A stretch of DNA of 64,000 nucleotides from NCBI GenBank assembly GCA_963751345.1, contig CAVVUS010000011.1:384001-448000 (forward strand), in the 5' to 3' direction. Shown one piece after another: positions 3,793 to 63,688 of the stretch. The DNA is from an uncultured Chloroflexia bacterium (GTDB taxonomy: Bacteria; Chloroflexota; Anaerolineae; B4-G1; SLSP01). A program made the translations under genes and the position numbers. The notes under the pieces were generated by a model that had not been told where the DNA came from, searched no databases, and was given only the letters and a program-made list of their open reading frames with translations. Every line of letters starts with the position of its first letter. The stretch's first letter is position 1.

Positions 3793-5385
3793 ATGAAGAT
3801 GAAAGTCCTGGTGGCAAACAGAGGCGAGATCGCGGTGCGCATCTTGCGGGCATGCCGAGATCTGGGGTTGCCGAGTGTCGCGGTCTATTCGGAGGGCGAC
3901 CGCGAGGCCCTGCACACACGGTATGCCGACGAGGCCCTGCTGATCGGTCCCACTACAGCGGCCGAGAGCTATCTCAGGATCTCCACGTTGATCGAGGCCG
4001 CGCGCAGGTGCGGCGCCGATGCCATTCATCCCGGCTATGGTTTTCTGTCTGAGAACGCGGAGTTCGCCGAGGCCGTGGAGGATGCCGGCATGGCCTTCAT
4101 TGGGCCGCGACCGGAGACGCTGGCAATGACCGGGGACAAAGTGGTCGCCCGCAGGATCGCCCGCGAGGCCGGTCTGCCGGTGCTAGGGGGACCGGACCAT
4201 GCGGTCGAGTACGACCGGGCGGCCGAGTACGACCGGGCGGTCGAGTATGGCGGGCGGTCGACGACGGGCGGACGGCGACGGACAGCACGGTGGCTGCGGC
4301 GCGCGCTGCGATGGACGGGCTTTCGTACCCGGTGCTGGTGAAGGCCGTCGCCGGCGGCGGTGGGCGGGGGATTCGATTGGCGCGCAGCGCCGACGAACTG
4401 CTTCCAATGATTGCTGCCGCCCGCAGGGAAGCCATGGCTTCCTTTGGCGACGATGGTGTCTACCTTGAGCCCCTGGTCGAGCACGCGCGTCACATTGAGG
4501 TCCAGATTCTCGGGGACGGCCAGGGCAAAGTCCTGTGCCTTGGCGAACGTGAGTGTTCTATCCAGCGTCGCCGCCAGAAGCTTATTGAAGAATCCCCCGC
4601 TCCCGGCCTCACGGAGAGCCAGCGCTCTTTCCTGATGGAGGCTGCGATGCGCCTGGGTGCGGCCCTGCGATACCGCAGTCTGGGCACCGTGGAGTTTCTT
4701 CTCGATAGGGCCGGTGCCTTCCATTTCATCGAAATCAATCCCCGTATCCAGGTGGAGCATCCGGTCACCGAGATGGTCACCGGCATGGACCTCGTCAAAG
4801 AGCAACTGAGATTGGCTGCAGGGCGCCCCCTGCGGTGGCGCCAGGAGCAAATCTCCCCGCGGGGTGCGGCCATCGAGGCGCGGGTGCTGGCCGAAGATCC
4901 CACCAGCAACCACGGCACGAGCTTCCTGCCCACGATCGGGGAGATCACTTATCTCAAAGAGCCCGGGGGCCCCGGCATCCGGGTGGACAGCGCCTTGTAC
5001 CAGGGGATGCACGTGACCACGGACTATGACTCCTTGCTGGCGAAGGTAGATTGCGTGGGGTGAGTCGCGCGCGGTCGCCCTGTTGAGGTTGCGTCGAGCC
5101 CTGCGTGAGTTCCAGATTGGCGGCGTGGTGACCGATCTGGAGTTCCTGCTGCAGATTCTTGAGAGCGTGCCCTTTATGACCGCCAGGCTGGACACGACCT
5201 TCCTGGATGGTTTTGTGCCACCGCAGCCCGAGCATTCCCCGGCATCGGAATCCGAAATCGCCGCCGCTGCGGCCTTCTTGGCGCACCGGCGACGTGCGGT
5301 GGTCGTTCCTCTACCGAAGAGGAACGCCGGGAGTCTGGATGGCGCGGCTGTGTGGCGCGCCAGCGCCTGGCGAGAGCAGATGTAG
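3793..5385 (+). CDS. accC: biotin carboxylase subunit (two apparent frameshifts, ~4260-4290 and ~5050)
   Basis: [68 protein letters not shown] and GIRVDS...YDSLLAK across ORFs 3793..4341, 4290..5063 and 5083..5385. Confidence 0.9.
4201..4265. repeat. 18-nt hairpin tandem repeat (CGGTCG-AGTA-CGACCG) inside accC
   Basis: gcggtcgagtacgaccgg, gcggccgagtacgaccgg, gcggtcgagtatggcgg; encodes [17 protein letters not shown]. Confidence 0.85.
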
Positions 5386-5450
5386 CCAACCACCCCTGAG
5401 CCTGGCCCTAGGGCCAGGTCACGCAGGGCAATGGAAAGGAAGAATAGGCC

Positions 5451-5955: not shown

Positions 5956-5999
5956 GGCGTAAAGGACGGGGAATCGGGAATACCAAGGGAGACATAACG

Positions 6000-6540: not shown

Positions 6541-6629
6541 CGGTATTAGCGCGACCGTCCGCTGGCTGATCGCTGAAAGCTGAGAGCTATCACCTTTCAG
6601 CACACACCCTACAAAAGGACCATAACTCA

Positions 6630-9457
6630 ATGCAGATGTCACCTATTGCGATCGTCGGAAAAGCCGGCATCTTTGCCCAGGCTCACGACGCCCGCGAGTA
6701 TTGGCAGAACATCATCGACAAGATTGACTGCATCGCCGACGTTCCACCCTCGCGGTGGTCGATCGATGACTACTACGATCCCGATCCTCAGGCCCGAGAC
6801 AAGGTCTACTGCAAGCGCGGTGGCTTCATCCCGGATATCGACTTCAATCCGATGGAGTTCGGGATTCCCCCGAACCAGCTTGAGGTAACCGATGTCTCCC
6901 AGCTTCTGAGCTTGGTCGTCGCCCGCGACTTGCTGATCGATGCCCGGTATGGCGAGGAGTACGGTGGTCGGCCCTTCGACCGGGCGCGTGTGGGGGTTGT
7001 GCTGGGGGTCGCCGGAGGGCAGAAACTCATCACACCCCTGACCTCGCGGCTCCAGTATCCGGTCTGGGAACGCGTGCTGCGCAGCCATGGTCTGCCCGAG
7101 GATGAGGTAAGTGAGATCGTTGACAAGATCAAGCTCGCCTACGTCGAATGGAATGAGAACTCCTTCCCCGGCCTGCTGGGCAACGTGATCGCGGGCCGTA
7201 TCGCGAACCGCTTCGATCTGGGCGGGCTGAACTCGGTCGTCGATGCGGCTTGCGCCAGCAGCCTCAGCGCCATCAAGATGGCGGTGAGCCAGTTGGCCGA
7301 GGGGAGCGCGGAGATGATGATCACGGGTGGGGTGGACACCGACAACTCCCCCTTCTCGTTCATGTGCTTCAGCAAGACGCCGGCTTTCACGCCCGGCGAG
7401 GCTCCACGGCCCTTCGATGCCGACGCCGACGGTATGATGGTCGGCGAGGGGTTGGGCATGATTCTGCTCAAGCGATTGGCTGATGCCGAGCGCGATGGGG
7501 ACAGGATCTACGCCGTGATTCGGGGCATCGGTGCCTCCAGTGACGGGCGTTACAAGAGCATCTACGCGCCCCGACCGGAGGGGCAGGCGCTGGCCACGCG
7601 TCGAGCTTACGAGCAGGCCGGTGTGGATCCGCTGAGCGTTGGGCTCGTCGAGGCGCACGGCACCGGCACACGTGCCGGCGACCCCGCCGAGTTTGAGGGG
7701 CTCGTACAGGTCTTCGGGTCGGCTAATGGCAAGGGGCAGCACATTGCCCTCGGCAGTGTGAAGTCACAGATCGGCCACACCAAGGCGGCAGCGGGCGCCG
7801 CCGGCCTGATCAAGGCCGCTATGGCGCTGGACCAGAAGGTGCTACCTCCTACCCTCCACGTCACACAGCCCAACCCGAAGCTGGGCATTGACGATACGCC
7901 GTTCTATATCAACACCGCCAGCCGCCCCTGGATTCAGCCTGAGGGTGCAGGCCCGCGGCGCGCGGGTGTAAGCGCCTTCGGGTTTGGCGGAACGAATCTC
8001 CACGTCGTGCTGGAGGAGTATAGTGCGGACCATGCGCTCGCGGACGAGCGTGCGCGCCGCGGGTGGACGGGCGGATAGCTTACCGGATCAACCGTGTGAC
8101 TCAGCCGGTTGTCCTGGTCGCTGCAACGCCACAGGCGCTGCTCGAGCGCTGTGAGCAGCTTCTGGCGGCCATGGAAGGCCAGGGCGAGGCGGCGATGGCT
8201 GCCTATCAGGAGGTCACGCAGGCCGGCAAGGCTCCTGAGATACCTGCGGACGCTGCCCGGCTCGGCTTTGTCGCTGACACCTTGGAGGAGGCCAGGGGGC
8301 TTCTGAAGAGCGCCGTCACGACACTGCGGGCCCGTCTGGACGCTGAGAGCTGGGACCACCCCAAGGGAATTACCTACCGGCGCACGGGAATGGCGACAGA
8401 GGGACATCTTGTCGCGTTGTTCCCCGGGCAGGGCTCACAGTATCTCAACATGGGCGCCGATCTTGCGATGAACTTCCCCCCGATCCGCGAGATGTACGCC
8501 CGGATGGACGCCCTTTTCCTCGACGAGGGGCTGACCCCCTTGTCGACGGTCGTCTTCCCGCCGCCTGTCTTCGACAAGGAGAGCGAGAAGCTGCAGGATG
8601 AGGCGTTGCGGGCCACGGACTACGCCCAGGCCGGGATCGGTGTGTTCAGCGCCGGGCTCTTCAAGCTGCTGGCCGGAGCCGGGTTCCGGCCTGATTTCAC
8701 GGCCGGCCACAGCTTCGGCGAGCTGTCCGCTCTGTGGGCCGGCGGCATCCTGAGCGAGGACGATTTCCTGAAATTGGTCAAAGCGCGTGGCAAAGCTATG
8801 TGCCCACCCGATGACCCCGATTTCGACGCCGGAAGCATGGCCGCCGTCCAGGGCGCACTTCCGGAGATCGAGAACGTGATCGAGGCCTTTGAGAACGTCA
8901 TTATCGCCAACCAGAACTCGAATACGCAGGTGGTGATCGCCGGTCCGACGGAAGACGTCCGGCTTGCGGGCGAGGCCCTCGGTGCAAAAGGCATCAAGGC
9001 CACGATCCTTCCGGTCTCTGCGGCATTCCACACGCCGGCAGTTGGCCACGCGTCCGAACCGTTTGCCAAAGCCGTGATGCCTACCACCTTCCACAAGCCT
9101 CGGGCCGTCGTCTTCTCGAATACGACGGGAGACCCCTATCCAGGGGAGGACGATGCTGAGGCCGCCAAGTCATTGCTCGCCAACCACATCCTCAATCCCG
9201 TGCTTTTCAAGCGACAGATCGAGCGCATCTATGAGGCCGGCGGGCGCATCTTCGTGGAGTGTGGGCCACGGCGCATCACGACAGGACTGGTCGAGGACAT
9301 TCTCGGAGCTGCTGCGGATGGCGGGGAATTCGTAGCCGTAGCACTCAACGCAAGCCGCACCGCATCAAGTGACCGGCAATTCCGCGAGGCCGTGGTCCGG
9401 CTGCGGGTCGCCGGCCTCAACCTTGGCGACGTCGATCCTTACGAGCTGGCGGCGTAG
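6630..9457 (+). CDS. PfaA/HglE-like iterative PKS, KS-MAT part (frameshift ~8060)
   Basis: KS catalytic motifs DAACASS, EAHGTGT and IGHTKAAAG, plus WNENSFPGLLGNVIAGRIANRFDLGG typical of PfaA/HglE; MAT motifs FPGQGSQY, GHSFG and SAAFHT. Confidence 0.92.
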
Positions 9458-9484
9458 CGGCACAAAGAAGCCGGGAGGATAGGT

Positions 9485-11027
9485 ATGGCATACAAAGTAA
9501 AACTCAATGGAAGCAACTACGTAAGTGACAATCGGGTTCAGGCTTTTCAGCAGTCCCTGACGGAAGGCCGTCCGGCTGACGGCGGCAGGCAGAGCAGCCA
9601 TCAGCAGCCGGCTGCGGCACAGGCAGAGGTGCGAACGCCCCCACCTGCAGCTCCGGAGCCGGCGAACGGCGCTCCTGCGATCTGCCGGGGGTTCACCGCC
9701 GGCTGGGGTGGCACCCCAGGTCATGCAACCGTCGGTGGACTACTCACAGGTGCTTGAGAGCCTGGAGCGAGGGTTGGCACAGTCCTACGAACACCAGAGC
9801 GAAACGCTGCGGGTTCACCAGTACTACCTCAACAACGAGGCGGCCTACGCCAGCATCTTCTCACAGCTCATGGACCAGGAGAGCAAGCTCATGCTGGAGG
9901 GGGCCGCATCACCCGAGCGGTCTGAGGTCGTGCTCAACGTGCTCGAGACCTTGACACACAGCGTGGAGCAGTTCCACACACACCAGACTGAGACGCTCAA
10001 CGTGCACAGCCAGTTCCTGAACCAGCAGGCAACCTATGCTGAGGCCTTCGTTGAACTCCTGCAGGACCATTACGGTACGGTGCTGCACGGCACCAATGGC
10101 AACGGGAACGGTAACGGCAATGGTCACGGGAATGGGAATGGCCATGGCTCGGGTAACGGGAACGGACACACGTCCGAGGCAACGGTGCAGGCCAAAGCCA
10201 CGGCCGGCCGGGGCAATGGCAATGGGCACGACCCCGCGCTGGGTCAGCCGCTTGCCGCCCAGCTCAACGCCGCGGCGCCTGTCGTAAGTCCACCGGCACC
10301 CGCTGTCAGGCCCGGTGTGCCGCAGCAGGCGATAGCGACCGCTGCGGTAGCGCCTCAGACGGCGGTGGCGCCTCAGACGGCGGTAGCGCCTCAGACGGCG
10401 GTAGCTGCCGCCCCTGCGACAACACAGGCCCCCGCCATCAGTGCCGAGGCACTTTCAGCGTCGCTGCTTGACATCGTCAGCGACAAGACGGGCTACCCGG
10501 CCGAGATGCTCGACCTCGATATGGACATGGAGGCGGACCTGGGCATCGACTCCATCAAGCGCGTTGAGATTCTGGGTGCGCTCCAGGAGGCCTATCCGGA
10601 AATGCCGGAGGTGGAGACCGACGCGCTGGCCGAGCTGCGCACGTTGGCTCAGATCGTGGCCTATACAGGGAGCCGGCTGCCATCCGGTGCGCCGGTTGAG
10701 ACGGTCGTCCCTGATGCGGTCGCCTCCGAGCCGGCGCAAGTGGCTCCCGAGCCCGCTACCGCAGCAGTGGATGTCGACGCACTTACTGAGGACCTGCTGG
10801 CGATCGTAAGCGACAAGACGGGCTACCCTGCGGAGATGCTCGAGCTCGATATGGATATGGAGGCCGACCTGGGGATCGATTCCATCAAGCGCGTCGAGAT
10901 CCTCGGCGCACTCCAGGAACAGCATCCTGAGCTGCCCGAGGTGGAGGCGGATGCCCTCGCCGAGCTCCGGACGCTTGCCCAGATTCTGGGCTATATGCAG
11001 GAAAGGACGGCACCAAAAAAAGCCTGA
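9485..11027 (+). CDS. PfaA/HglE-like linker plus tandem ACP-ACP part (frameshift ~9690)
   Basis: KLNGSNYVS motif, two helical repeats (QSETLRVHQYYL and QTETLNVHSQFL), an NG/NGH-rich linker and two ACPs with DLGIDSIKRVEI. Confidence 0.88.
10344..10405 (+). repeat. 18-nt tandem array, GCGCCTCAGACGGCG family
   Basis: (gcggtRgcgcctcagacg) x3.4; encodes AVAPQT. Confidence 0.9.
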
Positions 11028-11032
11028 AGCGG

Positions 11033-11875
11033 GTGGGCCTCGGCGAGCCAGAGCGCCTCGGAGAATCTGAGGGCGCTCGTCTTGAGGGCGACGTGCAGCC
11101 GGATGATGACAGGCTGCAGCCGGTCGCGGTTCGGGTTCGAGGTTTACCCGCTCCCGATACACTGGAGTTCGGCCTTCCCCAGGGCGACGTCTGCCTGGTG
11201 ACGGATGACGGCTCCGAGATTGCGCCCGCCGTGGTCGATCGGCTGACGACGCTTGGGTGGCCCGTGGTGATGCTGGGTCTGCCGGAGGGTGTGCAGCGCG
11301 AAGCGCCTGCCCGCGTGCCACGCTCTACGCCGGCGGTGCCGGTGATCGGTCTGACGGGGGTTGAGGAGTCGGACATTCGTGAGGCGCTGGCGCGCGTCCG
11401 GGCGGAACACGGTCCCGTGGGCATATGTATCTACCTGCATCCGCGCTTCCCCGCGCGCTCTCAGGCTGACCAGGCTCTGGCACCTGAGGACCGTGTCCTG
11501 CTGTCGGTCCCATTCCTGGTCGCCAAGATTCTTCAGCCGGATCTGGTAGCTGCGGCCACGGCCGCGCAAACCGAGACACTCAGCCGGGCCTGCTTTCTCA
11601 CGGTGACCGCGCTCGACGGTGTGTTGGGGCTCGACGGATGCGGCGATGCTGGCCCGATGGCCGGCGGGGTCGCAGGTTTGACCAAGACGCTCAGGCTGGA
11701 GTGGCCTGACGTCTACTGTCGTGCCGTCGATCTCGACCCTCGGCTGGCTGCCGATCAGGCCGCGGACGCGATCCTCGCGGAACTGCGGGATCCCAACCGT
11801 TTGGTGGCTGAGGTAGGGTATGGTCCCGAGGGACGGGTGACGCTGGAACAGGCCGATGGGCAGATCAGCAAATGA
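11033..11875 (+). CDS. KR N-terminal structural subdomain of the PfaA-like synthase (HglF-like)
   Basis: VCLVTDDGS, FLTVTALDGVLG, GGVAGLTKTLRLEWPDVYCRAVDL; lies in the -1 frame right after the ACP ORF. Confidence 0.75.
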   Translation: MGLGEPERLGESEGARLEGDVQPDDDRLQPVAVRVRGLPAPDTLEFGLPQGDVCLVTDDGSEIAPAVVDRLTTLGWPVVMLGLPEGVQREAPARVPRSTPAVPVIGLTGVEESDIREALARVRAEHGPVGICIYLHPRFPARSQADQALAPEDRVLLSVPFLVAKILQPDLVAAATAAQTETLSRACFLTVTALDGVLGLDGCGDAGPMAGGVAGLTKTLRLEWPDVYCRAVDLDPRLAADQAADAILAELRDPNRLVAEVGYGPEGRVTLEQADGQISK

Positions 11876-13853
11876 GCAGATCGATGCATCGACGGATCTG
11901 CAGACGGACACACGGGCATATGACGATGGAATACAGTGGCGGGTCGATGGCTGCCCCGCTGACGCGGGAGCGAATAGCGTGACGATAGGGAGTGAGATGG
12001 CATTGGGCCGTGACCGAATGCCTACGGATCAGACAGTGTTTCTGGTCAGCGGCGGGGCCAAGGGCATCACGGCTGCCTGTGTCATTGCGTTGGCCCGCCG
12101 GTATAGGAGCCGCTTCATCTTGGTGGGGCGTTCGCATTTTGAGGCGAACGCCGAACCTGCGTGGGCTGCGGACGCTGCCGGTGAGGCCGATCTGAAGCGC
12201 CTGGCAATGGGAGCTCTTGCCGCTTCGGGGGAGCGTCCCACGCCCCGTCGTGTCCAGCAGATGGTGGCCCAGGTGACCTCCCAGCGGGAGATCGCCGCCA
12301 CGCTTGACGCCATTGCCGAGGTGGGCGGGACTGCGGTCTATGTCGCGGCCGACGTGACGGACGGCGAGGGGCTGGCGGTGGCTGTGGCACAGGCCGCCGA
12401 CGAGGTCGGTGCTGTCAATGGCATTGTCCACGGGGCCGGCCTACTGGCCGACAAGCTAGTGCAGGACAAGAGTGCAGCGGACTTCGACCGCGTGGTCTCC
12501 GTCAAGGTGGATGGCCTCCGCAACCTGCTCGCCGTTGTTCCGACCGAACGCCTCGAGTACCTGGTCCTCTTCTCGTCCGTCGCCGGCTTCTACGGCAATG
12601 TGGGTCAGGCCGACTACGCGGTGGCAAACGAGGTACTTAACAAGATGGCCCACTGGGTGCGGGCCCATTCGCCCGCGTGCCACGTGGTATCGGTAGACTG
12701 GGGTCCGTGGGATGGAGGGATGGTCACGCCTGAGCTCAAGAAGCAGCTTGCCCTGCGGGACATCAAAGTCATCCCAATCGAAGAGGGGACGGAGATCCTG
12801 GCCGATCTGCTGAGGCCGCGCCGCGTCGTTGGCCGCGCGAACTCACAGGTGATCGTTGGGAGTCCAATGCTCCCACCACTGCGTCAGCCTCCCACGGAAG
12901 AGCGCACCTACCACATTCGGCGCAGGCTGCGCGTCGAGGACAATCCCTTTCTCCTCGACCACGTCATCGGCGGAAATGCCGTGCTTCCCACGGTCTGCGC
13001 TGTTGCCTGGATGGCCAATGCCTGCGAGCAGCTCTATCCGGGGTACCAATTCCTGCGTGTGGATGACTACCGCGCACTCAAGGGCATCGTCTTCGACGAG
13101 GATCTTGCGGCAGAGCATACGCTGGATCTCCGCGTGCGAGCAGGTCGCCCTGAGAGCTCGGCAGCCGATGATCGCCGTACCGGGCGGCCGGGGGATCCCG
13201 CGGTTCCATCCACGATCGAGCGACTGAGTACAGTCGAGGCGGATGCGCTGATATGGAGTGACTCGGGTGGGGATCTGCCGCGCTATCACTACCGCGCCCA
13301 AGTGACGCTCTGCCGGACGTTGCCCGATGCGCCCACGCACCCCGTCCCCGACGCCGGTGTCGCGCCGGTGTTGAGGGGCGCCGATCTCTATGCGGATCGA
13401 CGTCTCTTCCACGGTCCGGGCTTCCAGGGGGTGCAGGAGATCCTCACGATGGATGAGACCGGCCTGACGATGAAATGCCTTTTGCCTCCCCTCTCGAGTG
13501 CGACGCAGGGGCAGTTTCCGGTGCAGGTGTTCAACCCCTACGTGGTCGATGTCCAGCTCCAGAGCTTGTTGGTCTGGGCCAATCACTATTTCGGCTATGG
13601 TGGGCTGCCCCTGCGCATCCGGCGGGGTGTGCAGTACCTGCCCTTGCGGTTCGGCGAGACCACTTACGCGTCGATGTACGTCAGGTCGCGGAGTCCTCGC
13701 AGTCTGGTCGCCGATGTGCTGATCTACGACGACGCGGGCATCGTTCATATGGAGGTGCGGGGCGCTGAGATCACCCTGAGCGAGCGACTCAACACGCTCT
13801 TCGAGCAGAATCGGTTGGAGATGGCCCTGCCGGTTGAGAACGGAGCCCTGTAA
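11856..13853 (+). CDS. ketoreductase plus PKS-type dehydratase (PfaA C-terminus/HglG-like); true start possibly ~11997 or ~12018
   Basis: LVSGGAKGITA, HGAGLLADK, FSSVAGFYGNVGQADYAVAN, WGPWDGGMV; DH motifs FLLDHVIGGNAVLP and LFHGPGFQ. Confidence 0.88.
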   Translation: MGRSANEQIDASTDLQTDTRAYDDGIQWRVDGCPADAGANSVTIGSEMALGRDRMPTDQTVFLVSGGAKGITAACVIALARRYRSRFILVGRSHFEANAEPAWAADAAGEADLKRLAMGALAASGERPTPRRVQQMVAQVTSQREIAATLDAIAEVGGTAVYVAADVTDGEGLAVAVAQAADEVGAVNGIVHGAGLLADKLVQDKSAADFDRVVSVKVDGLRNLLAVVPTERLEYLVLFSSVAGFYGNVGQADYAVANEVLNKMAHWVRAHSPACHVVSVDWGPWDGGMVTPELKKQLALRDIKVIPIEEGTEILADLLRPRRVVGRANSQVIVGSPMLPPLRQPPTEERTYHIRRRLRVEDNPFLLDHVIGGNAVLPTVCAVAWMANACEQLYPGYQFLRVDDYRALKGIVFDEDLAAEHTLDLRVRAGRPESSAADDRRTGRPGDPAVPSTIERLSTVEADALIWSDSGGDLPRYHYRAQVTLCRTLPDAPTHPVPDAGVAPVLRGADLYADRRLFHGPGFQGVQEILTMDETGLTMKCLLPPLSSATQGQFPVQVFNPYVVDVQLQSLLVWANHYFGYGGLPLRIRRGVQYLPLRFGETTYASMYVRSRSPRSLVADVLIYDDAGIVHMEVRGAEITLSERLNTLFEQNRLEMALPVENGAL

Positions 13854-16800
13854 TGGGCAAAGCCGGCATCATTGGTATGGACTGCGTCTTCGGGGACGCG
13901 GGCGACCTTGAGGTGTTTGCTCGCCTGGTCTATGTGGGCACGCCGTTACCCCTTGGTGCGCCTCAGATGTCGCCTGAGAGCGGGACCTCCACGCCAGGCG
14001 GGCTTGCTCTGCTCGTGAAGCGGCTCCTGGGCGCTCGACCCTCAGGGATGAGCGACGGGCCCGCCCCTCAGATCGGGGCCATTGTCTGCGCTACGGAAGC
14101 GAGTGTGGACGCAGCCACGATGGCGGCGACGCTCTCGTTCTATGGCACACCAGGTCCGAGCGAGGGCTTCGACCTGGGCCGGATCGCGGAGGCGTTGGAG
14201 CTCGCCCAGGCGTGGTTGACCCAGGGGGCCGCAGATCTGGTTCTGCTGGCGTCACACGATCAGGTCGGCACCTGTGGCATCGTGATAGCACCTGCCCAGG
14301 CCGTTTCCCCGGCTCGCATCTACGCTCTCGTCGAGAGCGTCACCGTGGGCGTCACAGAGCAAGGCTCCGCGCTCTATCGTCGGGGCTTGGCGGAGGCTGG
14401 CGCGACCCCGGCCGAGGTCGGGCTGCTGCAGGTCTCTGACTGGCCACCCAGTGCGGAGTTGGCTGCCGGATACATGACAGCATCTGAGGATCTCACGTGC
14501 GCTGTGGGCACGACGCCCGTAAGGCCGGACCCGCAGGGCGGTAGACCACCGGGCGAGGGCGCCGTATCCCCGCTCTGGAACGTGATCAAGGCGGCGCTCT
14601 GTCTCCACCGACGAGTGATCCCACCGACCGGCTTGTATTCCTTGCCGGTGACGGAATCCGCCGAAGCCGGCGTGCCCATTCGCGGCTCATCCGGCTGGCA
14701 GGACACACCTTTCTACATCGTACCGGAAGCCCGACCGTGGTTTGCGGGAAACGGGCGCCGCATCGCCTCCATTGTTCGCGAGGCGGACGTGGCCTGGCAG
14801 ATCGTCCTGTCGGAGCCTGCCCCGTCTCGGGAGATCGGGACATCCGGACGTATGGCCATCCGGCCCGGAGCAGCCGGTGAACCGAGCGTCCTTTTGCCCA
14901 TCGCCGGTGAGGACAAAGGCCAGATCCTCTCGCGGATGGACGCACTCCGTCGAAGTCTCGAGGGGGGAGCGTCGCTGCCGTCGGTGGTTGAGGCTGCCTA
15001 CGAGCGGTATGCCGCCGAGGCGGAGGCCCCCTATGCCCTCGCCCTGGTGGGGCGCAGGTCCGGGCGGTCGGAGTTGAAGGACGCGATCCTGAAGGAGATG
15101 GCGTTTGCGGCTGAGGGCGTCGAAGGGGCGGACCGGCAGGAGTGGCAGACGCCCGGTGGTAGCGTCTTCACGGCGCACCCGCTTGGGTCGCAAGGGGTGG
15201 CCTTCGTCTATCCTGGGGCGTTCAACTCCTACATCGGCCTGGGCAAGGACCTCTTCCAGCACTTTCCGGATCTGCACGAGCGCCTCTCCGGCCTGGTGTC
15301 CGATCTGGGGCGGGCTGTAGCCGATAGACATATCTATCCGCGCAGCCGAACGCGTCTGACGGAGAAAGACCTCGCTGGACAGGCAGGAGCAACTTACCGC
15401 AGACCCGCCGGCGCTGATCGAGTCGGGCACGGTCTTTGCCGTTGCTCACACGCACGTCATGTGCGAGGCATTCGGGGTGCAGCCACAGGCGGCGCTGGGC
15501 TACAGTCTGGGCGAAACGAGTATGCTCTGGGCGGCAGCCGTATGGCAGGACGGTGACGCGGGCGCGAGCGCTATGCGGTCGTCGCCTCTCTTCGGGGATC
15601 GAATTGTGGGGCCCAAGGCAGCGGTCCGTGAACACTGGGGCCTCGGTCCCGAAGAGGATGTCGATTGGGCGGTATTCCTGCTCAAGGCGCGCGTCCACGA
15701 TGTCCAGGAGGCGCTCAAGCGAGAGCCCCGGGTCTATCTGACGCTGGTCAACCAGCCCGGCGAGGTGGTAATCGCGGGCGACGCAGCCGGCTGCCAACGC
15801 GTCGTCGACGCCCTTGCGTGTCACGTGCTGCCCGTTCCCTACGACGTCGTCATCCACGCCGAGGCCATACGATCAGAGTACGGGGCGTTCGCCGAACTCT
15901 ATACGCATCCCGTGGCCAACCGCCCTCCGATGGATTTCTACTCGGCGGCGGACTACGGGCCTCTCACATTGGACAGCGCCGCGCTGGCGGACGCGATGGC
16001 GAGGATGACGTGCCAGCCCGTGGATTTCCCGCGCCTGGTTCAGCGCGTCTACGACGATGGCGCGCGTGTTTTTGTGGAGCTGGGTCCTCTCGGCACGTGC
16101 ACGCGGCGGATCAAGCGGATTCTGCGGGGCAGACCTCACGGCGCTGTGGCGATCAATCCTGGTGTTGGGGATGATTTCGATGGTGTTGTCCGCGCGCTCG
16201 CGTACCTTGTAGCGCATCGCGTGCCGATGGATCTTTCACCGCTATACGCGAGCGAGGCCGCGCTCCCTGTCCTTCCGGTTCTGTGGGCGGAGCCTGAGAT
16301 GGTAGAGGCGCCCTCGCCGTCTGAGGCGCCTTCGCCGTCCGAGGCGCCTTCGCCGTCCGAGGCGCCTTCGCCCCAGTCCCTTGAGGTGCTCCTGGAGGCG
16401 TATGGTCGCCGGCTGCTTCCCCACCGGCAGAGAGTGGCGATGTCGCACGAGAGATTCCTCGCGGCCCGCCATGCTGCCCAGGTGGGGGCCGGCGCCTTGA
16501 TTGACATGCAGCTTTCTGTAGGTCGGGTCATGCTGGGGACGCAGGTCCGGGTTCCCCATCGCGCCACCCCCCCCGCTCCTCCGCCTCCCTACGGGGAAGC
16601 GGAACTGCGCGCCTTCGCAATGGGTGACGTGGAGCGATGTTTCGGTCCTGATTTCGCCGTGTATCGCGGCAGGCGTCTGCCCAGGATCCCGAACGGGGAT
16701 CTGCTCTTGATGAGCAGGATTGTGCACATCGCGGGGAATTCAGACGACGGGCGTCATGCCGGCGCACCCGGTGCAGGACGCGGGCCGCCGTTCCGGTGCG

Positions 16801-19811: not shown

Positions 19812-19860
19812 GGACGTCCGAACGTGGGAACGTTTCAACGTGAGAACGTTCCCACGTCCG
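19812..19860. repeat. palindrome built from 8-nt ACGT-core units between convergent genes (possible bidirectional terminator)
   Basis: gacgtccg aacgtggg aacgtttc aacgtgag aacgttcc cacgtccg; 13-bp arms acgtgggaacgtt and aacgttcccacgt. Confidence 0.7.
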
Positions 19861-38717: not shown

Positions 38718-38758
38718 GCCGCGTACGGCGTCCGAGCCGCGTACGGCGTCCGAGCCGC
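38705..38758. repeat. 18-nt tandem x3, stem-swapped variant CGGC-GTCYGA-GCCG
   Basis: (gtacggcgtcYgagccgc) x3; the first unit contains the upstream gene's TGA. Confidence 0.9.
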
Positions 38759-38783
38759 AGCCGCCTGGGATTGAGAGGGAGGT

Positions 38784-42960: not shown

Positions 42961-42964
42961 GGTC

Positions 42965-53093: not shown

Positions 53094-53095
53094 TC

Positions 53096-57307: not shown

Positions 57308-57456
57308 TGATCGACTCCATCATCAGAAGACGACCCGTCGGGTCGTCTCTGTAGTCCAGGTACATTGAGGCCCGGCAGTCAGCCGGGCGCTGCAAGGCAT
57401 TATAGTCGATCCGACCTACCAGGCAATCGCACACTCGTTGGACGTGTAGTCGTGCC

Positions 57457-60400
57457 CTACGGCGCGACTCGAACCGGCTCGTCGAGCGTCACACGGTTGG
57501 CCTGCACCATCTTTGGGTCGGGTGCTGTCGCCGTCAGGCGATCTCCCGTCCCTGGATCGTACCACCCGACACCCAGGTGATACGTCCCCTCGGGGACCTC
57601 TGCCACGTCGAGGGTCACGGTCTCGCTGACCACCTCTCCGGCCATCCACAAGGTGGTCGGGTAGGTCCAGTCTCGCGGCATCGCGTCATTCTGGGTGACG
57701 ACGACCTCGGTCTCCGGATTGTAGAGGTGCACGAAGCGCTTGTAATCCTGTGAGGGTGTGGCCGCGGCCTGCCACCATAGTGTCAGCTGCAACTGCTGCC
57801 ATCCGAAGCGCCCGTACCCCCGATGAGGTCGTAGCCCAGCAGCCGGATCGTGTCTTTTCTCCGAAGGAGGCGTCTGCTCCGAAGGAGGCGGACTCGGGGT
57901 GAGAGATCGTCGGGGCGGTGAAGAGCCGTGGACGCGCAGCCACCTGCACGGTGGCCACCGGGCCGCATGCGGTGACGCCCGATACCTCTCCAGCCAGCGT
58001 CAAGCCGAGTTCATAGGTGCCCTCGGCGAGCCGCGTCGGGAGACCGACGGTCACGGGAGAGAGCACCCACGTGTGCCGCGGCCACGCCGACGTCCTGCTC
58101 CCTGCGGCCAATGGGGCTGTCGTGGTGCCGACGATGTTGCCGGTCGAGTCGGTCAGCGTCCACGTGGCACTCAGATCGTCAGTTGGCTGAAGCAGGGCAT
58201 TCCACTGTGGCTGCAGTTGGAGGCTCTCTCCCTCCTGGATCGTGTCGGGCACGTCCAGGCCGAGGAGGGCCACCTCGCCGTTCTGACAGAGGATCGTCGC
58301 CCCCTTTCGGGTCTGCTCGCAGCACGCCGTGCGAAGATCATAGAGAGTGGGCGTGTCGAGGCGGATGGGGAGGTCAACCTGGCCCCCGCCTTCCATCGTG
58401 GCCTGCAGGTAGGTCACGACCTGGAGGACATAGTCGCCCGGCGCCAGTCCCTCGGGAAGAGGCACAACCACGGTGTCCACAACGCGTTGTCCCGGCTCCC
58501 AGAGGGTGGTGGGAAGGTAGCCGTAGCCGGGTTGCAGGTCTTGCTGGGCAAGCCGTCGCCCGTTCAAGTCCAGGACCCTCAGCGAGAGACGCCAGTTCCT
58601 GGCTGTGCCTGCAGTGGAGACGAGGCACCTGATCTTTCTCTCCGACGGCAGCCGCACTTTGGGTAGGGCACTCCCCTGTCTCTACGAGGGCGGTCGCGGG
58701 TTGGGCGGGACACTGCTCTGCCTCCACGCCGGCGGTCGTGCCTTGGGCGCACGACGCCGTTTCAGCTTCGACGGCAGGCTGGCTCAGAGTCCAGGTCATC
58801 TTCAGACGGAGGGTCTCGGGCTGTGGCTGTTCCACATCGAGCGCGAGCAGGTTCAGATCCTGGAATTGGGCGAGCACCGGGTCGTCATCATCCGCGGGTG
58901 GACCCTTGGGCACGCGGAGTTCACCGACGTAGAGCGGGCCCATCGTGTGCCCCTCGGCAGTCATCGGTGAGAGTTCCCCCGATGCGCCGGTGACACGGAG
59001 CTGGACGAGATAGAGTCCGCGCGAGAGGTCAACCGGAAGCGTCAGGGTCAGCCGGTTCGTCGCTGCAAGCGGTGCGGCGGCCTGCGCGACCGCAGCATCG
59101 ACGCCGTGCCGTGGTTCGGCCGGCGACACCACCTTGAGCGTCACCGTGAGGGGCTCCGCTGGGGGAGTGTCCCATACGAGGTCGACCGTGATAGTCTGGC
59201 CGGGTTCCACCGTCTCGGTCGATAGCCGGGCCGATTCCAGGCCGAGGTCACCGTAGGCCACCGGCCCGCGGTGGGGATAGGGCATCTGGTCGAAGTCGAA
59301 GAAGACGGCCTCACCTTCCGCGGGCTGCCCGGTCACGACCCCCGGCTGCAGGAAGAGTGGGCCGATCAGAGCAGCCCCAAGCACGCTGATGGCAATGCAT
59401 GCACCCCGGACCAGCGCCTTGATCTCTCGGTTTCCAGGCTGCTGTCTCCAGCCGCCGGCCCATATGAGGGCAACGGCGGCAACCACGACGGCGCCAAGTG
59501 AGCCTAGAGATGAGGCGCGTTCCAATGGCGTCGCCCGCAGCCTTAGGCTCACGGTGTGATTGCCCGGCACGAGATCCACTGCCAGTCGGCCGGAGCCCTC
59601 CACAGCATAGCACGGTGAAGGAGCGCCATCCACCGTCGCCGTCCACCCGGGCCACCAGTTAACCGGGAAGGCTACGGATGTGTTCGCCTCCATCACCGTG
59701 ACCGACCACGTCTGTTTGACCGGTGTGGATGCTATCAACTGGCCGTCGATGAGCGCGGGTCCCGCCGACTCGCCATCACCCACGGCGCGCAGCGACCCGT
59801 GGCGCTATCGCTCAGTCCGCTGGGCGCCTCGACCAGTCCGCTGGGCGCTTCGACCAGTCTGCTGGGCGCGTCGACCACGGCCTCCGAGATGTAGAGCCGG
59901 GGCACGACGGCGGCCGGGAGATATTCGTAGCGAATCGTGGTGCCGATGTTGCCCGTGAAGGTCTCATAGAACTGCAGATTCTCCCACGTCACATCACCGG
60001 GCGAGATGGCGAGCCGGTCCGGATGGAGGCCGAGAAGCGCCGCAGCGACCGTGAGGATCCCCGCGGCCAGGGCAAGTCCGCCCCGCACGTATCCCTGCCG
60101 CAGGTGCGGTTGCCCGGGGGCAGCCGCGTCCAGGCCGGCCAGAGGCTCGATGATCGCACCGGCGATGGCGGCGGTGAAGAGCGCCTGGATGGATAGGAAA
60201 CGCCAGGGGAACTGCGTCAGCGCCAGAAGCGACAGTCTCTTCCACAAGACGGCCGACAGTGGCGTGATCATGAAGGTGCTCAGCAGCAGGCCGGGCAGAA
60301 GCGCAAATGGCAGATAGGCAGCCGGCAGGCTCCGAGGGCCGGTGGGCGAGGTCGTCTCCGTGAGTGATGCTTCCCGCGACCTGGCAGCGAGGCGGCGCCC

Positions 60401-61482
60401 GACGGCGATGACGACTGCCGCGCTGCCCGCAAGGGCGAGCAGTGCCTGGACCAGACCCATCGCAAACGGCCCCGCTGCGTCCAGCGTGCCTGCCACGCTG
60501 TAGTTGAAGATCGGGACGCGCTGCACAAGATTGAGCCCGCGGAAATGGTTGCTGTAATTGAAATACCCCTCGGTGAACGCGGATCCCATCTGACCGTACT
60601 TCGTCTCAGCGATGGCGGGCAGCCAGAACCACATCGTCAGCAGGATCCCCGTCACGAACGACATCAGCACGCCGACGAGCCGGAAGACCTTTGGGGCAAG
60701 CCCAGAGTCTGCTCGGACCGGAAACCCCAAAGGTCTCGGCGTGGGCGATCCACACCGACACCAGGGCGTAGAAGAGTGCAAAGGGAGAGAAGATCAGCGC
60801 GGAGACGTTGTGGGTGAGGATGAGGGCCCCATAGGCGCCCCCTGCAGCGAGGACGCGTCCAACCGTGGGCCGGGACGCCACGCGATCCAGTGCCCATAGG
60901 ATGAGGGGAAACCAGACAAAGGCGTAGAACTCCGACAGCGAGTCTCCCCGCACATAGACGTTGACCAGGTGGAAGGGGGCGAAGGTATAGGCGGTCACAG
61001 CCAGCAGACGTGCCGTGGTGCCCCGGAAGATGCGGCTCGACCAGAGTCCCATCGTGATCGCTGCCAGGATGAAGCCGAGTGTCTGTGTTGCCTGTATCGC
61101 CGACAACACATTGATGCCCAGAGCCGTGAGCCCGCCGCTGACATAATAAGGGAGCGCGGCGTAGTAGTTGAAGAACGGATAGCCCAGGTCGTAAGCCGCG
61201 TGGGACATCCAGCGCGGCGGGAAAATGCCGTGGGCCAGGCTGTCCGCCATATCCATCGTCCGCTGCAGGAGAAACGGACTGTCGCCACCGCCACGGGTGT
61301 TGACGATGCCCGGCCCCCAGAGCGGGGCCGCCGCCAGGAGGCCGAGGAGTAGCCAGATCACAAACGACCTGGAGGCAAAGATCGAGCGGCGGGAGACGGA
61401 CGCAGACGCCCCTCGCCGATTCCGACGGCTCGCCGATTCCGATCGGCGTGGCGTCGAGCCGCAGCGTCTTTGGCATCGTCAT
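57457..61482 (-). CDS. large GT-C-type membrane protein (PTPS-related membrane domain) with C-terminal beta-rich domains (several frameshifts)
   Basis: PRWMSHAAYDLGYPFFNYY, YVRGDSLSE, LTHN, QFPWRFL, WWPGWTATVDG, and repeated PT..W..G..V.D...L..G.Y.L modules across ORFs 60606..61361, 59735..60781, 58374..59783, 57686..58657 and 57457..57792. Confidence 0.72.
57859..57894. repeat. 18-nt tandem x2 with CTCC-GAA-GGAG mini-hairpin
   Basis: ctccgaaggaggcgtctg and ctccgaaggaggcggact; encodes ASFGAD ASFG on the minus strand. Confidence 0.65.
59813..59875. repeat. 21-nt tandem x3, CCAG-TCYG-CTGG family
   Basis: (cagtcYgctgggcgcNtcgac) x3; encodes VEAPSGL on the minus strand. Confidence 0.88.
60683..60737. 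repeat. REP-like nested palindromic element, copy 1 (intragenic)
   Basis: 12-bp arms agacctttgggg and ccccaaaggtct around an inner hairpin; near-identical to 63614..63667. Confidence 0.88.
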
Positions 61483-63688
61483 TGCGGCGGCTCGGTGAGG
61501 ATGACGGGTAGGTTGACGCCACCCATTGTCATGCGTCCCGTTGACCTGTGCCGCCACGCCCTCGCCCGTCTCCGAATCGTAGAGCCCCACCAACAGGCGA
61601 TCCTCGCCGGGCGAAGCGTGGTCGGGGGAGGGGCTCACGCCAGCGACCGGATGAAGGTCGAGGACGAGGTCGCCGGGCTGCCAGAACGACGTCGCGAGGT
61701 GGCCGAAGCCCGGTTGTCCGTCATGCTGGGCGATCTTGACACCGTCGCGTAGATAGTGGACAAATACGGTGTAGTCGCGATCGAGAGGTTTGGTCGTCTC
61801 CCACCACAGGTAGACCACGGCTCCCGCGGAGATGTCGGGCTCCCTCCTCCCGACGGAGAGGGCTGGGGAGGGGGCCGGCGCGACGAGCGCCGCGCGCAGC
61901 ACCACGCCGTTGTCGAACTCTGCCACGGGCGGCGGGACGTCAGGACGCGTGGCGGGCGATGATGATCGTGGCGATGCTGTAGGGCGCCGGGTCCAGGTCT
62001 CCCTGCGCCTCCGGTCCCTGTCTCACCTGCAGATAGGCGGGGTGGGGGAGATAAGGCAGCACGTCGGGCTCCCAATCGCGGTAGGGCCAGACGACGAAGG
62101 CCAGGCCGGCGTCATCCGACCGGCGTTTGCTCGATTGGGAGGAATGCCACCGACGACGCTGGGACGAGAAAGGGCAGCGACGTCCACTCGTCCCAGATCT
62201 GGCGGTCGACGTAGACGTATATGCTCTCTCCACCTCCTCCCGCCGTGGGGGAGGGCTGGGGAGGCGAAGCGGAATGCAGCATACGCGAGCCGTCCCACCC
62301 CGTGCCGATGAGCGTGTTGATCTCTCCGGCGAGGTCGACCGGACCCGCCTCAAACCAGTGGTAGGCCAGCGGCTCTGAAGGGTAGCGTATGAAGTAGTCG
62401 TGCGCCGTGCTGCCGAGTCCTGCCGCCAGGATGAGCGCGGGGAGCAGGTGCGTCAGGCCGCGCCCGCCGCGTGCCGGCCACCGCTTGTGATAGCCACGCC
62501 AGGCCGAGGACCGGCAGCAGTGCCGCCGTTGGCAGCACCCCCACACCTCGAAGGAAGTGCGGCGCGTCCTCAGCCAGCAGCGTGGGCACCGCCATAGCGG
62601 CGGTCCACAGGAGGACGGTCGCCATCGCCGCGCTGCGGCGGAATCGTGCGAGGGCAACCCCGACGCCAATCGTGAAAGCCAGCCCCAGCGCAGGGCCCCA
62701 CACCGGACGCCCCGAGACGTTGTGACGCCAAATCCGATCGCCCCGGATCGTGAACATGCCGAGGGTCGCCAGTGTGTGGCGCCCCAGGGTCTGCCAGAAG
62801 TGGCCGCCGTTGATCTGTTCGCTGAACACCGATACCTGTCCGGTACGCGCGAGCACGATGTCGGGATGCCCCAACGTATAGAGCCCCAGCGGCAACAGAA
62901 CGACGAGGGCGACCAGGCCTGCCCATACCGCGCCGCGCCAAAGACGCTTCATCTCTTCCCGGTGGGTGAGGAGCCCATAGATACCCAGGCACGCCACGGC
63001 GACCGGCGTAAACCGGGCCGCATTGTATGTGTACCAACTGGCACCATAGAGTGCGCCTGCGGCTATCCAGTGCGCCATCGGGCGAATGCCCTGTCGGCGC
63101 GCGCACGGCAGTAGTCTGCCGCACGGCAGTAGCCTGCCGCACGGCCTTAGCCGCCTGCGAGAGAAAGAGCGCCGTCAAGAGCGGAAGCAACACCGCGCGA
63201 AACCCGACCCGGCTCAGGTGCACGTGCCACAATGTCACGGCCAGGACGCCGAGTGCCAGGCGCCCCGCGCGCCGCCCCCAGAGCGTCCGACCCAGATCGT
63301 ACGTCGCAGCCAGGGTCAGGAATCCGACGTAGAAGGAGGGCAGGCGCACGGCGAGGGGACTGCGTCCCAGGATCGCGACGCCCAGTGTCACCAGGTAGAC
63401 GAAAAGCGGCTCACGCCCGTTGTTCGCCCCGAAATAGAGTTGGGGGCGCCCACCGAGGATGGAAAGTGCGTCCAGCCCGTGCTGGGCTTCGTCGTGGTAG
63501 AGACCTGGGGGGACTTGTCCGAAGGCTGCGAGCCGCAGCACTGCGCCCAGGAGAAGGAGTCCGAGAACGAGCAGGCGGCCTCGCCAGAACCGCCTGCCCC
63601 GTGCGGTCCCGATGAAGACCTTTGGGGCAAGCCCGAGTCTGCTCGGGCCGGAAACCCCAAAGGTCTCGATGCGGGCGTGCCGGTTCAT
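61479..63688 (-). CDS. ArnT/PMT-like (GT-C) glycosyltransferase (several frameshifts)
   Basis: PPGLYHDEA, NNGREPLFVYL, WHVHLSRVGFR, YTYNAAR, GDRIWRHN, APHFLR, and C-terminal DYTVFVH...QHDGQP..W.PGD module. Confidence 0.8.
63103..63145. repeat. 18-nt hairpin tandem CGGCAG-TAGY-CTGCCG
   Basis: (gcacggcagtagYctgcc) x2.4; encodes AVRQAT AVRQTT on the minus strand. Confidence 0.85.
63614..63667. repeat. REP-like nested palindromic element, copy 2 (54 nt, in frame)
   Basis: gaagacctttggggcaagcccgagtctgctcgggccggaaaccccaaaggtctc; encodes ETFGVSGPSRLGLAPKVF. Confidence 0.88.

Follow-up and report, generated by a model that had tools for sequence, protein, structure and literature searches.

The window analysed here is a stretch of 64,000 nt from an uncultured Chloroflexia bacterium (positions 384,001 to 448,000 of contig C11 of the source genome, G000), in which short tandem arrays of hairpin-forming units, mostly 18 nt long, are located within and between genes. 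G000 is a metagenome-assembled genome (MAG) of 5.40 Mb in 49 contigs with 62.8% GC, an estimated completeness of 93%, and an estimated contamination of 5.6%. For one conserved protein of the window, the best relatives share at most 75% identity and occur in MAGs labelled Anaerolineae or Chloroflexota. The repeat-carrying genes of the window encode GAF/HAMP/HisKA sensor kinases, a PP-binding protein, and an acyltransferase, among others. Using Tandem Repeats Finder (TRF; score >=30, 38 rows), 11 distinct arrays of period 18 were called, starting at 4201, 10344, 16305, 33764, 38694, 40177, 40681, 43280, 44200, 44822/44834, and 63102. Other periods are 15 (32148 and, weakly, 25909), 21 (31112 and 59813), 24 (10094), and 17 (61412). 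This is in good agreement with a preliminary description of this DNA, which had reported short hairpin arrays of period 18 and, in some cases, 15 or 21; all hairpins quoted there were found in the window.

The period of 18 nt is also the dominant one in G000 as a whole. Counted after removal of overlapping rows, 114 arrays with a score of at least 50 have period 18, compared to 22 with period 17 and 11 with period 19; at a score of at least 70, the corresponding numbers are 68, 12, and 3. Two control genomes with triplets shuffled within 1-kb blocks contain 6 and 7 period-18 arrays. The density in the window is approximately 17 arrays per 100 kb (11 in 64 kb, score >=50) versus 2.1 genome-wide. 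Hairpins were scored in the consensus unit of period-18 arrays as a perfect stem of at least 4 bp enclosing a loop of 3-8 nt. Such stems occur in 71% of 101 units; in shuffled units and in random genic 18-mers, the share is 35% and 23%, respectively. For stems of at least 6 bp, the three values are 17%, 3%, and 2%. The excess persists if the peptide is kept and synonymous codons are redrawn according to the genome's own usage (n=75; 68% versus 31% for stems of at least 4 bp, 19% versus 3% for stems of at least 6 bp), with 10 of 75 arrays individually exceeding 95% of their own recodings. Both a genome-wide period spectrum and a comparison of hairpins with codon-shuffled controls had been proposed as checks in the preliminary description.

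Clustering of the 276 arrays of period 14-22 yielded three hairpin families, F1 (58 arrays), F2 (11 arrays), and F3 (5 arrays), which together comprise 74 arrays. The remainder mostly consists of two non-hairpin families and 130 singletons. The F1 unit is GCGCC-N6-GGCG, a 15-nt core with a stem of 4-5 bp and a loop of 6 nt, followed by a linker of 2-3 nt; F2 is CGCCAG-N4-CTGGCG with a stem of 6 bp, and F3 is GCGCCCAG-N4-CTGGGCGC with a period of 21 nt and a stem of 7-8 bp. The arms GCGCC.../...GGCGC are common to all three families. Periods of 18, 17, and 15 nt account for 40, 10, and 4 of the 58 F1 arrays, respectively, and individual 18-nt and 21-nt units are shared by loci that are not linked. 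Outside these families, stems of at least 5 bp are present in 31% of the period-18 units versus 11% of controls (n=64). The general rule that tandem units in this DNA are mini-hairpins thus holds insofar as the hairpin excess is real, but it is largely carried by three related, dispersed families (74 of 276 arrays), with a modest excess elsewhere.

A genome-wide search with the F1 core pattern GCGCCT[CG][AG]GACGGCG gave 123 occurrences in 69 clusters, and none with the reversed pattern as control. All genic and intergenic labels used here rely on gene positions from a simple custom caller (4,980 genes, 86.8% coding). By these labels, 42 of the 69 clusters are located in genes and 27 are intergenic or at gene edges, approximately three times the non-coding share of the genome. 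Genic clusters occur in all six frames, with 19, 7, and 6 in sense frames 0, 1, and 2 and 3, 4, and 3 in the antisense frames (n=42); the most common reading is A-P-(Q/G/R)-T-A-x in sense frame 0. Due to the fact that one 15-nt core is read in six frames as well as placed between genes, and that the hairpin excess survives recoding, the units are a feature of the DNA and not a peptide motif.

Neighbouring cores are spaced by 18 nt in 35 cases and by 17 nt in 11 cases, and both cores have the same orientation in 53 of 54 spacings. The 3-nt linker is uniform inside each array and variable among arrays; therefore the arrays have grown by local duplication of core plus linker. Dispersal over the 5.4 Mb is clumped; two of the 50-kb bins contain 12 and 8 arrays, respectively. 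Neither a target-site duplication nor a conserved tag was found at the array ends, the flanks of which contain decaying partial units only.

Table 1. Repeat arrays of the window, their units and context, and the corresponding sites in the relative G002
Feature	Position	Strand	Unit or hairpin	Reading and context	Site in G002
18-nt array, 3.4 copies	4201-4281	+	GCGGTCGAGTACGACCGG; stem CGGTCG/CGACCG, loop AGTA	AVEYDR; ORF 3793-4341	5.2 copies; second G002 locus with the same unit
Asn/Gly/His-rich coding repeat, 24/12/6 nt	10094-10165	+	no hairpin unit		common to G002; 12-nt length difference
F1 array, 3.4 copies	10344-10405	+	GCGGTA-GCGCCTCAGACG	AVAPQT; ORF 9708-11027, linker between TrAA12-like and PP-binding domains	copies fewer, degenerate
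F1 array, reverse orientation, 3.8 copies	16305-16372	+	CGCCGTCYGAGGCGCCTT	EAPSPS; ORF 15459-16868, after acyltransferase domain	about one degenerate unit
F3 array, 21-nt unit, 2.3 copies	31112-31159	+	GGGCGCC..CCAG-TCCG-CTGG	N-terminal region, histidine kinase ORF 30780-33326	4.6 copies
F1 core without linker, 15-nt period, 3.3 copies	32148-32196	+		within GAF domain, ORF 30780-33326	common to G002
F1 array, 5.2 copies	33764-33856	+	GCGCCTCAGACGGCGTCC	APQTAS	
18-nt array, 3.6 copies	38694-38758	.	TCCGAGCCGCGTACGGCG	inter-ORF, upstream of 38784-40919	canonical F1 array, 6.2 copies
F1 array, reverse orientation, 2.4 copies	40177-40220	+		PSEALS; 16-residue insertion, GAF-domain loop, ORF 38784-40919	
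F1 array, 2.7 copies	40681-40731	+		ASDGV(G/R), second reading frame; near C-terminus, ORF 38784-40919	one extra unit
F2 array, 2.4 copies	43280-43323	+	CGCCAG-TCCG-CTGGCG-CA	LAHASP; ORF 42965-45868	about 1.3 units
F2 array, 4.6 copies	44200-44283	+	CGCCAG-GCTG-CTGGCG-CT	ARQAAG; 25-residue insertion, turn between two GAF beta-strands	shorter version, about 1-1.5 units
F1 array, 4.7 copies	44822-44905	+	GCGCCTCAGACGGCGGAA	AP(R/Q)TAE; between two GAF domains, ORF 42965-45868	common to G002
18-nt unit, ~2 copies	57855-57890	-	CTCC-GAA-GGAG	within broken gene 57460-60700; seen in G000/G002 alignments	period 18, 1.9 copies (TRF)
F3 array, 21-nt unit, 3.1 copies	59813-59877	-		APS(R/G)LVE; 65-nt frame-shifting insertion	absent
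17-nt array, 2.1 copies	61412-61447	.	CGCCGAT-TCCGA-TCGGCG type		21-nt-period array, 3.1 copies
18-nt array, 2.4 copies	63102-63145	.	CGGCAG-TAG(T/C)-CTGCCG		common to G002

The open reading frames (ORFs), positions, and copy numbers of the window arrays are compiled in Table 1. The repeat at 10094 is an ordinary low-complexity linker. The region 6630-17000 contains a run of same-strand ORFs, including those of the PP-binding-domain and acyltransferase-domain proteins, which is conserved and syntenic in G002 and suggests a cluster of polyketide or fatty-acid type.

One of the two non-hairpin families has a 16-nt period with an 8-nt sub-period (AACGTTnn-like direct repeats), is present in the window at 19820-19857 and in 13 further arrays of G000, and is mostly intergenic; its arrays look like tandem operator or binding sites. 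The second comprises 13 arrays of G000 with a period of approximately 15 nt and ATTCTC/GAGAAT words, e.g., C37:174086-174149 and C10:29167-29229.

Occurrence and turnover among related genomes

Besides G000 (35 matches), five of the 21 other congeneric genomes contain the F1 dimer, with 35 matches in G002, 23 in G016, 15 in G012, 5 in G004, and a single one in G007; none of the 19 genomes searched from other genera contains it. With one genome per species (185,579 species), 46 matching stretches were obtained, of which 44 derive from the five Chloroflexota carrier MAGs and the other two are single matches in two Myxococcota MAGs. In sampled stretches of relatives with equal GC content, period-18 arrays occur at 0.6 (G011), 0 (G010), 0 (G033), and 0.25 (G021) per 100 kb; the stretch of G002 syntenic to the window has 18 per 100 kb. 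The hairpin repeats are lineage-specific and belong to a sub-clade of one genus, so that the general property proposed in the preliminary description does not extend beyond this group.

The window is collinear with contig C6 of G002 at 73-86% nucleotide identity (about 82% overall). Of 15 window arrays compared with G002 by alignment, 11 also form arrays in that genome, with a different copy number or unit, three (16305, 43280, and 44200) are represented by approximately 1-1.5 units, and one (59813) is absent. In the opposite direction, 24 of 26 G002 arrays were alignable, no flanks being found for the other two, and approximately 13 of the 24 are absent from the window or present with at most ~1.3 units; one six-copy F3 array of G002 leaves no trace. 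Copy numbers differ between both genomes at 4201, 31112, 40681, and 44822. The units themselves have changed as well. The array at 33764 is homogenised to the loop and linker TCAGAC+TCC in G000 versus TGAGAC+TAC in G002, which indicates concerted evolution, and at G002:14531 compensatory changes affect both arms of the stem (CCGTCG/CGACGG versus CGCTCG/CGAGCG). At 40177, the units are in opposite orientation in the two genomes (inverted loop) and encode PSEALS in G000 and SAPGTA in G002, where one unit is 19 nt long.

Four public metagenome runs from three studies contained 5-20% of the sampled words of 38500-45000 in short contigs only; these contigs are uninformative on habitat and expression, and the parts not covered count as no evidence. 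In a near-identical contig of 544 nt with 13 other differences, exactly 18 nt (one unit) are missing in the 44822 array. A second contig spans the 43280 array unchanged.

An active insertion or amplification of hairpin units had been proposed in the preliminary description. Amplification and turnover are indeed observed, both between G000 and G002 and in one metagenome contig, and the two quoted insertions relative to paralogs were confirmed by comparison, but sites considered empty often hold about one degenerate unit. Expansion from such a seed, or contraction to one unit, is at least as common as clean insertion. Empty sites in orthologs were found at a loop of glutamate 5-kinase (ProB; see below) and at 59813.

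The comparison with independent assemblies also bears on the possibility of an assembly or binning artefact. Although a MAG of 49 contigs with an estimated contamination of 5.6% gives some reason for caution, its probability is close to nil: the same arrays are located at orthologous sites in the independently assembled G002, the unit occurs in six MAGs and in contigs of all four public runs, and the arrays are shorter than a sequencing read.

Host genes, protein loops and reading frame

The F1 arrays are located in 34 distinct host genes, only three of which encode a GAF-type domain. The ten hosts scanned include genes for ProB, 6-phosphogluconate dehydrogenase, a GH2 beta-galactosidase, an S9 peptidase, a GH94 enzyme, ABC ATPases, HlyD, and APH. 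Paralogy as cause of the dispersal was rejected in view of the low share of GAF hosts (3 of 34) and the otherwise unrelated protein families. Altogether, F1, F2, and F3 arrays are carried by at least 45 different genes, conserved housekeeping enzymes included, and 87 period-18 arrays in all are genic, 52 of them within one fifth of the ORF length from either end.

All examined insertions occupy loops, linkers, or termini. In an AlphaFold model of the GAF domain encoded at 40032-40592 (alignment of 11 sequences; mean predicted local distance difference test score (pLDDT) 86.6, predicted template modelling score (pTM) 0.83), the 16-20 extra residues at 40177 are placed between the strands 40-47 and 68-74 with a pLDDT of ~50. 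Against solved GAF domains, the three best matches of this model have target-normalised TM-scores of 0.72-0.80. The 25-residue F2 insertion at 44200 aligns to the turn between strands 129-137 and 140-149 of the same model; a PDB sequence search with the GAF segment 44000-44700 gave no match.

A further insertion is located in ProB. In 16 of 22 genomes of the genus, the loop in question consists of four residues (PELA, PDLP, and similar). G000 has a 27-residue F1 array instead, and the alignment of its protein to the solved enzyme is interrupted there, between chain residues ~66 and 67. Shorter, diverged inserts are present in G002, G012, G016, and G019, and the peptide in the loop is different in every carrier. 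The ProB loop is a repeated landing or expansion site. The ancestral DNA (..GCCTCGACGGTGGCG..) already resembles part of the F1 core, and several clean insertions elsewhere have 3-6 nt in common with their flanks, which is consistent with microhomology-guided seeding but falls short of proof. As a separate observation, G003 (contig C48), which lacks the F1 dimer, contains its own 18-nt repeat in this loop (NHAVRG, approximately three copies) with the hairpin CACGC-CGT-GCGTG.

Signs of a filter for reading frame and protein structure are seen in the period spectrum. For arrays of period 10-30, the period is a multiple of three in 187 of 215 genic cases versus 43 of 91 intergenic ones. The mode of the intergenic arrays is still period 18 (23 arrays), beside periods 16, 17, and 20; therefore the natural unit is approximately 17-18 nt and coding sequence retains the multiples of three. 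The assertion that periods are always a multiple of three is contradicted by the intergenic arrays, by period-17 arrays of the F1 unit, and by the array at 59813, which adds 65 nt.

This F3 array, which G002 lacks, has no repeat at the corresponding site in 16 informative orthologs either. The conserved gene concerned (57460-60700, minus strand) consists of four frame segments in G000, with the array at one of the points of frame change. G002 encodes it in one ORF of 1,104 residues, and in other relatives its length is mostly ~1,200-1,290 residues. Further frame-breaking differences from G002 are located at 58630 (1 nt), 57855 (2 nt), and 57799 (14 nt). The gene looks decayed and probably represents a pseudogene, with an assembly error as the alternative; cause and effect are inseparable for the 59813 array. 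In case of ORF 38784-40919, the G002 ortholog (G002:C6:46992-47559, L146:6992-7559) shows a frame change across the array containing the 19-nt unit, and four stops. The survival of in-frame insertions in loops is thus supported by those examined, but out-of-frame cases occur in G000 and apparently in G002.

These data bear on whether selection acted on the peptides, i.e., whether hexapeptides such as APQTAx and ARQAAG are useful as flexible linkers or loops and the hairpins are their by-product. Sense frame 0 is the most common (19 of 42 genic F1 clusters), arrays are found in loops, linkers, and termini, and several persist in both G000 and G002, as such selection would predict. Nonetheless, the other five readings account for 23 of 42 genic clusters, 27 of 69 clusters are outside genes, and the hairpin excess outlasts synonymous recoding. 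In addition, the peptide at 40177 differs between the two genomes, that of the ProB loop differs among all carriers, and frames are broken by arrays in G000 and apparently in G002. We therefore regard an origin by selection on the protein as most doubtful.

Strand orientation, larger palindromes and Y1 genes

Beyond the features given in the preliminary description, the F1 units are biased in orientation. For 58 of 69 F1 clusters, the strand that reads GCGCCTSRGACGGCG is the one richer in G locally (binomial p=8e-9), a result that is stable over half-windows of 5 to 100 kb. The bias is likewise observed by 100-kb bins (26 of 29 untied bins agree), by contigs (17 of 18 untied), and for intergenic clusters alone (22 on the G-rich strand versus 5). 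Fifteen intergenic clusters have codirectional genes on both sides; eight of them are oriented with these genes and seven against them, but 13 are on the G-rich strand; the bias therefore follows the chromosome strand and not transcription or frame. In G002, a stretch of contig C6 with positive skew contains 18 forward and 4 reverse F1 cores, and sampled pieces of contig C2 with negative skew contain 4 forward and 13 reverse cores. The G-rich strand usually is the leading strand, on which the lagging strand will be synthesised when the chromosome is next replicated. With GC skew as proxy, the orientation of F1 corresponds to the replication-direction feature of single-stranded-DNA elements. 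Y1/HUH transposases of IS200/IS605 and of repetitive extragenic palindrome (REP) type act on the lagging-strand template, as outlined by Quentin et al. (2018, PMC6006769).

Polar chromosome signals track the G-rich strand in the same manner, and a functional strand-polar DNA or RNA signal (of KOPS or Chi type, a protein-binding site, or an mRNA-stabilising or terminator hairpin) with secondary genic copies has to be considered. In favour of such a signal, the intergenic core is located at the tips of long hairpins, and nine intergenic clusters lie between convergent, 15 between same-direction, and three between divergent genes. However, 69 clumped and mostly intragenic loci in 5.4 Mb are not what such a function would suggest, intergenic F1 is unbiased relative to transcription (8 to 7), and F1 is absent from close relatives with the same chromosome biology. 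A search of the whole window against Rfam at gathering thresholds gave no match either, and a signal function appears very unlikely.

The strand bias is also difficult to reconcile with a purely local origin, in which each array arose by slippage on a local quasi-palindrome and the likeness among arrays is convergence from GC-rich codon usage. Several observations agree with a local origin: about one unit is present in the 'empty' alleles at 43280, 44200, G002 14531, 53542, and 57831, the ancestral ProB site was already F1-core-like, and 130 of 276 arrays (period 14-22) are singletons without relatives in the genome. Against it, the identical 15-nt core occurs at 69 loci versus none for the reversed control, in six frames and between genes, and is absent from equal-GC relatives and nearly all of the 185,579 species genomes; furthermore, the same 18-nt and 21-nt units are found at unlinked loci. 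As the sole explanation, local slippage is unlikely.

The intergenic F1 core is often situated at the apex of larger hairpins. Two such palindromes, which behave as classical REPs, were distinguished. Palindrome A (CTTCCGGGTTG...CAACCCGGAAG) is present in 20 copies, the tip of which is a loop of 7-8 nt in five and an F1-like inner hairpin in approximately nine. Palindrome B (GCCGGGGA...TCCCCGGC) is present in 40 copies, roughly a dozen with an F1-like inner hairpin and one with a small F1 array. The short loops of 'empty' palindrome copies (CTCGGAG, CTGCAGAAAG) resemble the F1 loop. Inner hairpins at REP loop tips recur across the genus, e.g., on contig C211 of G012 (L341:76-346), where a Y1 gene is adjacent to three palindrome A copies, one of them with a nested apex hairpin (TGAGGCCCGAG-CAGA-CTCGGGCCTCA).

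As stated in the preliminary description, no responsible enzyme is visible in the window. Elsewhere in G000, three Y1/HUH genes were identified, none of which is tied to the hairpin units by co-occurrence. One encodes a RAYT-like (REP-associated tyrosine transposase) Y1 protein of 165 residues (G000:C19:139446-139937) with the HUH motif HYH and the sequence Y-I-H-A-N-P; it scores above the cut-off for Pfam Y1_Tnp and, with 64 bits, below the 80-bit cut-off of the NCBIfam model for REP-associated tyrosine transposases. Together with three flanking copies of palindrome B (AGTGCCGGGGA..TCCCCGGCACT), the gene makes up a REPtron-like unit (G000:C19:139331-140160, L001:1227-2057); the apex of the left copy is formed by the F1 core. 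An ortholog in G005 (61%) is flanked by B-like hairpins and a relative in G012 (48%) by palindrome A. No pattern of co-occurrence of RAYT genes with F1 was found across 41 genomes, nor among the five carriers, and the flanks of the two other Y1 genes of G000 contain no F1, F2, or F3 unit within ~1.5 kb on either side. Retron-type or diversity-generating retroelement (DGR)-type templating was dropped as a candidate since no reverse transcriptase (PF00078) was found in G000, which is 93% complete.

Another Y1_Tnp-like ORF on contig C19 of G000 is accompanied by tandem units of ~164 nt, each with a 17-bp stem (GCGGATCACAGATCCGC...; L003:1953-2791). These units form an additional REP-like family, for which the ORF is the putative transposase.

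Relation to known repeat systems and proposed origin

Closest to the hairpin units are the REPs as surveyed by Di Nocera, De Gregorio & Rocco (2013, PMC3733652), whose account includes intragenic REPs, small tandem REPs, and, in Chloroflexi, REPs nested in other palindromes. Like F1 (123 copies in 69 clusters), the REPs described there are short, GC-rich, dispersed multi-copy stem-loops, specific to species or clades and sometimes in tandem (PMC3733652). In several species of that survey, intragenic dimers or groups encode 20-30 or more residues, as is the case here, and the small REPs of Thermomicrobium roseum are clustered and nested in small palindromes, comparable to F1 at the apex of palindromes A and B (PMC3733652). 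Differences are equally clear. Compared to the stem of 6-13 bp (5 bp in Thauera) and the element length of 20-40 bp given for REPs (PMC3733652), F1 has a stem of 4-5 bp and a core of 15 nt; F2 has 6 bp, and only F3 reaches 7-8 bp. F1 occurs almost only head-to-tail at a fixed period of 17/18 nt, an arrangement that according to the same survey is absent or under-represented among REP dimers (PMC3733652). REPs are mostly extragenic inverted dimers, F1 is intragenic at 42 of 69 clusters and same-strand in 53 of 54 spacings. The tetranucleotide CGTC is found in F1 only across the border of stem and loop and not as a terminal tag as in REPs.

Rickettsia palindromic elements (RPE) are single insertions of roughly 100-150 bp. 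They differ from F1 in that they do not form 18-nt tandem arrays, occur in another phylum, and lack any sequence likeness. What they share is the in-frame insertion of a palindrome into genes that, in the description of PMC3733652, probably still encode working proteins.

With the REPIN/RAYT and IS200/IS605 systems as presented by Quentin et al. (PMC6006769), F1 shares the strand bias expected from action on the lagging-strand template. A further likeness is the RAYT-like gene of G000 itself with HYH, a Tyr and an Asn four residues on, and flanking REP hairpins. Unlike in REPIN/RAYT, the flanking REPs are palindrome B and not F1, the gene is missing from G002, and F1 forms tandem arrays and not inverted doublets.

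Coding minisatellites, or variable number tandem repeats (VNTRs), have in-frame periods, change in copy number by slipped-strand mispairing, and become homogenised, with a unit private to one gene. The hairpin arrays resemble them in their in-frame periods, in the whole-unit copy-number differences between relatives or strains, and in homogenisation, and the 130 singleton arrays fit an ordinary VNTR. Unlike a VNTR, the unit is not locus-private for 74 of 276 arrays, and that of F1 is hairpin-forming and strand-biased, is read in several frames, and is spread over dozens of unrelated loci, some of them intergenic. PARCELs (2010, PMC2996958) are, as characterised in that report, likewise tandem coding repeats with dyad-symmetric DNA and a patchy distribution. 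They encode a 25-residue amphipathic domain in ORFs of no known function and spread by horizontal transfer (PMC2996958), compared to units of 5-7 codons in ordinary enzymes and sensors here. In the literature searched, no description of such repeats in Anaerolineae was found, nor anything relevant on in-frame tandem stem-loops of 18 bp in bacteria, although the supplementary tables of PMC3733652 (intragenic REPs, REPtrons), which lay outside this search, may hold closer precedents.

F1 works like a REP but is not a member of a described family, because stem length, terminal tag, location, and dimer type all disagree. On present evidence, it represents REP-type repeats in a miniature, head-to-tail form restricted to one lineage, with an unusually large share in coding sequence and a clear strand polarity, and not a new category of element.

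In our opinion, F1, F2, and F3 are probably miniature REP-like palindromic DNA repeats of neutral or selfish nature, shaped by strand-specific seeding, amplification by slippage, and a filter imposed by selection. A unit would be placed at a new site by a process acting on one DNA strand at the replication fork, either by a Y1/HUH nuclease of RAYT type in trans or by microhomology-guided template switching, copying from another array. Unit and local linker would then be amplified, contracted, and homogenised by slipped-strand mispairing, assisted by the hairpin, which would give rise to head-to-tail arrays of ~17-18 nt. Copies causing a frameshift or interfering with protein folding would be purged by selection, such that genes keep multiple-of-three arrays in loops, linkers, and termini, and arrays of any period could persist between genes, the core often at the apex of larger REP hairpins. 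The data directly show the dispersal, the DNA-level nature, the strand bias, the turnover, and signs of a filter for frame and structure; the mode of seeding and the part played by slippage are what we infer.

Several points weigh against this explanation. No enzyme is tied to the hairpin units: Y1 genes are present in F1 carriers and non-carriers alike, and G002 has no close ortholog of the RAYT-like gene (best 31%), whereas the non-carrier G005 has one with 61%. The F1 stem has only 4-5 bp and lacks the conserved GTAG tag of REPs (GTAG is present in 3 of 35 dimer linkers of G000 if the first G is included). In a MAG of 49 contigs, GC skew can do no more than approximate the direction of replication, and palindrome B without an F1 core shows no significant strand bias (9 to 6). 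The genic and intergenic labels depend on a crude custom gene caller. Many 'empty' alleles keep a partial unit, where gain and loss look alike without outgroups; the direction of change is polarised at the ProB and 59813 sites only. The strain-level evidence is a single low-depth contig, and for singleton period-18 units the excess of stems of at least 5 bp is modest (20% versus 9% of shuffles, n=35).

It is tempting to speculate further that F1 and its relatives represent the smallest mobile or templated element known in bacteria, a 15-nt core that would be copied on the lagging-strand template without a dedicated transposase, land by microhomology (including in the loops of larger REPs), grow into 18-nt arrays, and thereby write surface loops of proteins. 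We consider this improbable; if true, it would make F1 a replication-coupled generator of protein insertions, beyond a tolerated REP.

In practice, such arrays lead to inflated and fragmented gene calls in MAGs, and the hypervariable loops they create can mislead ortholog alignments. The strong, transcription-independent strand bias, together with the availability of related MAGs with and without the element, makes REP-like spread more approachable. G000 shows at an unusual scale how a non-coding hairpin repeat turns into protein sequence.

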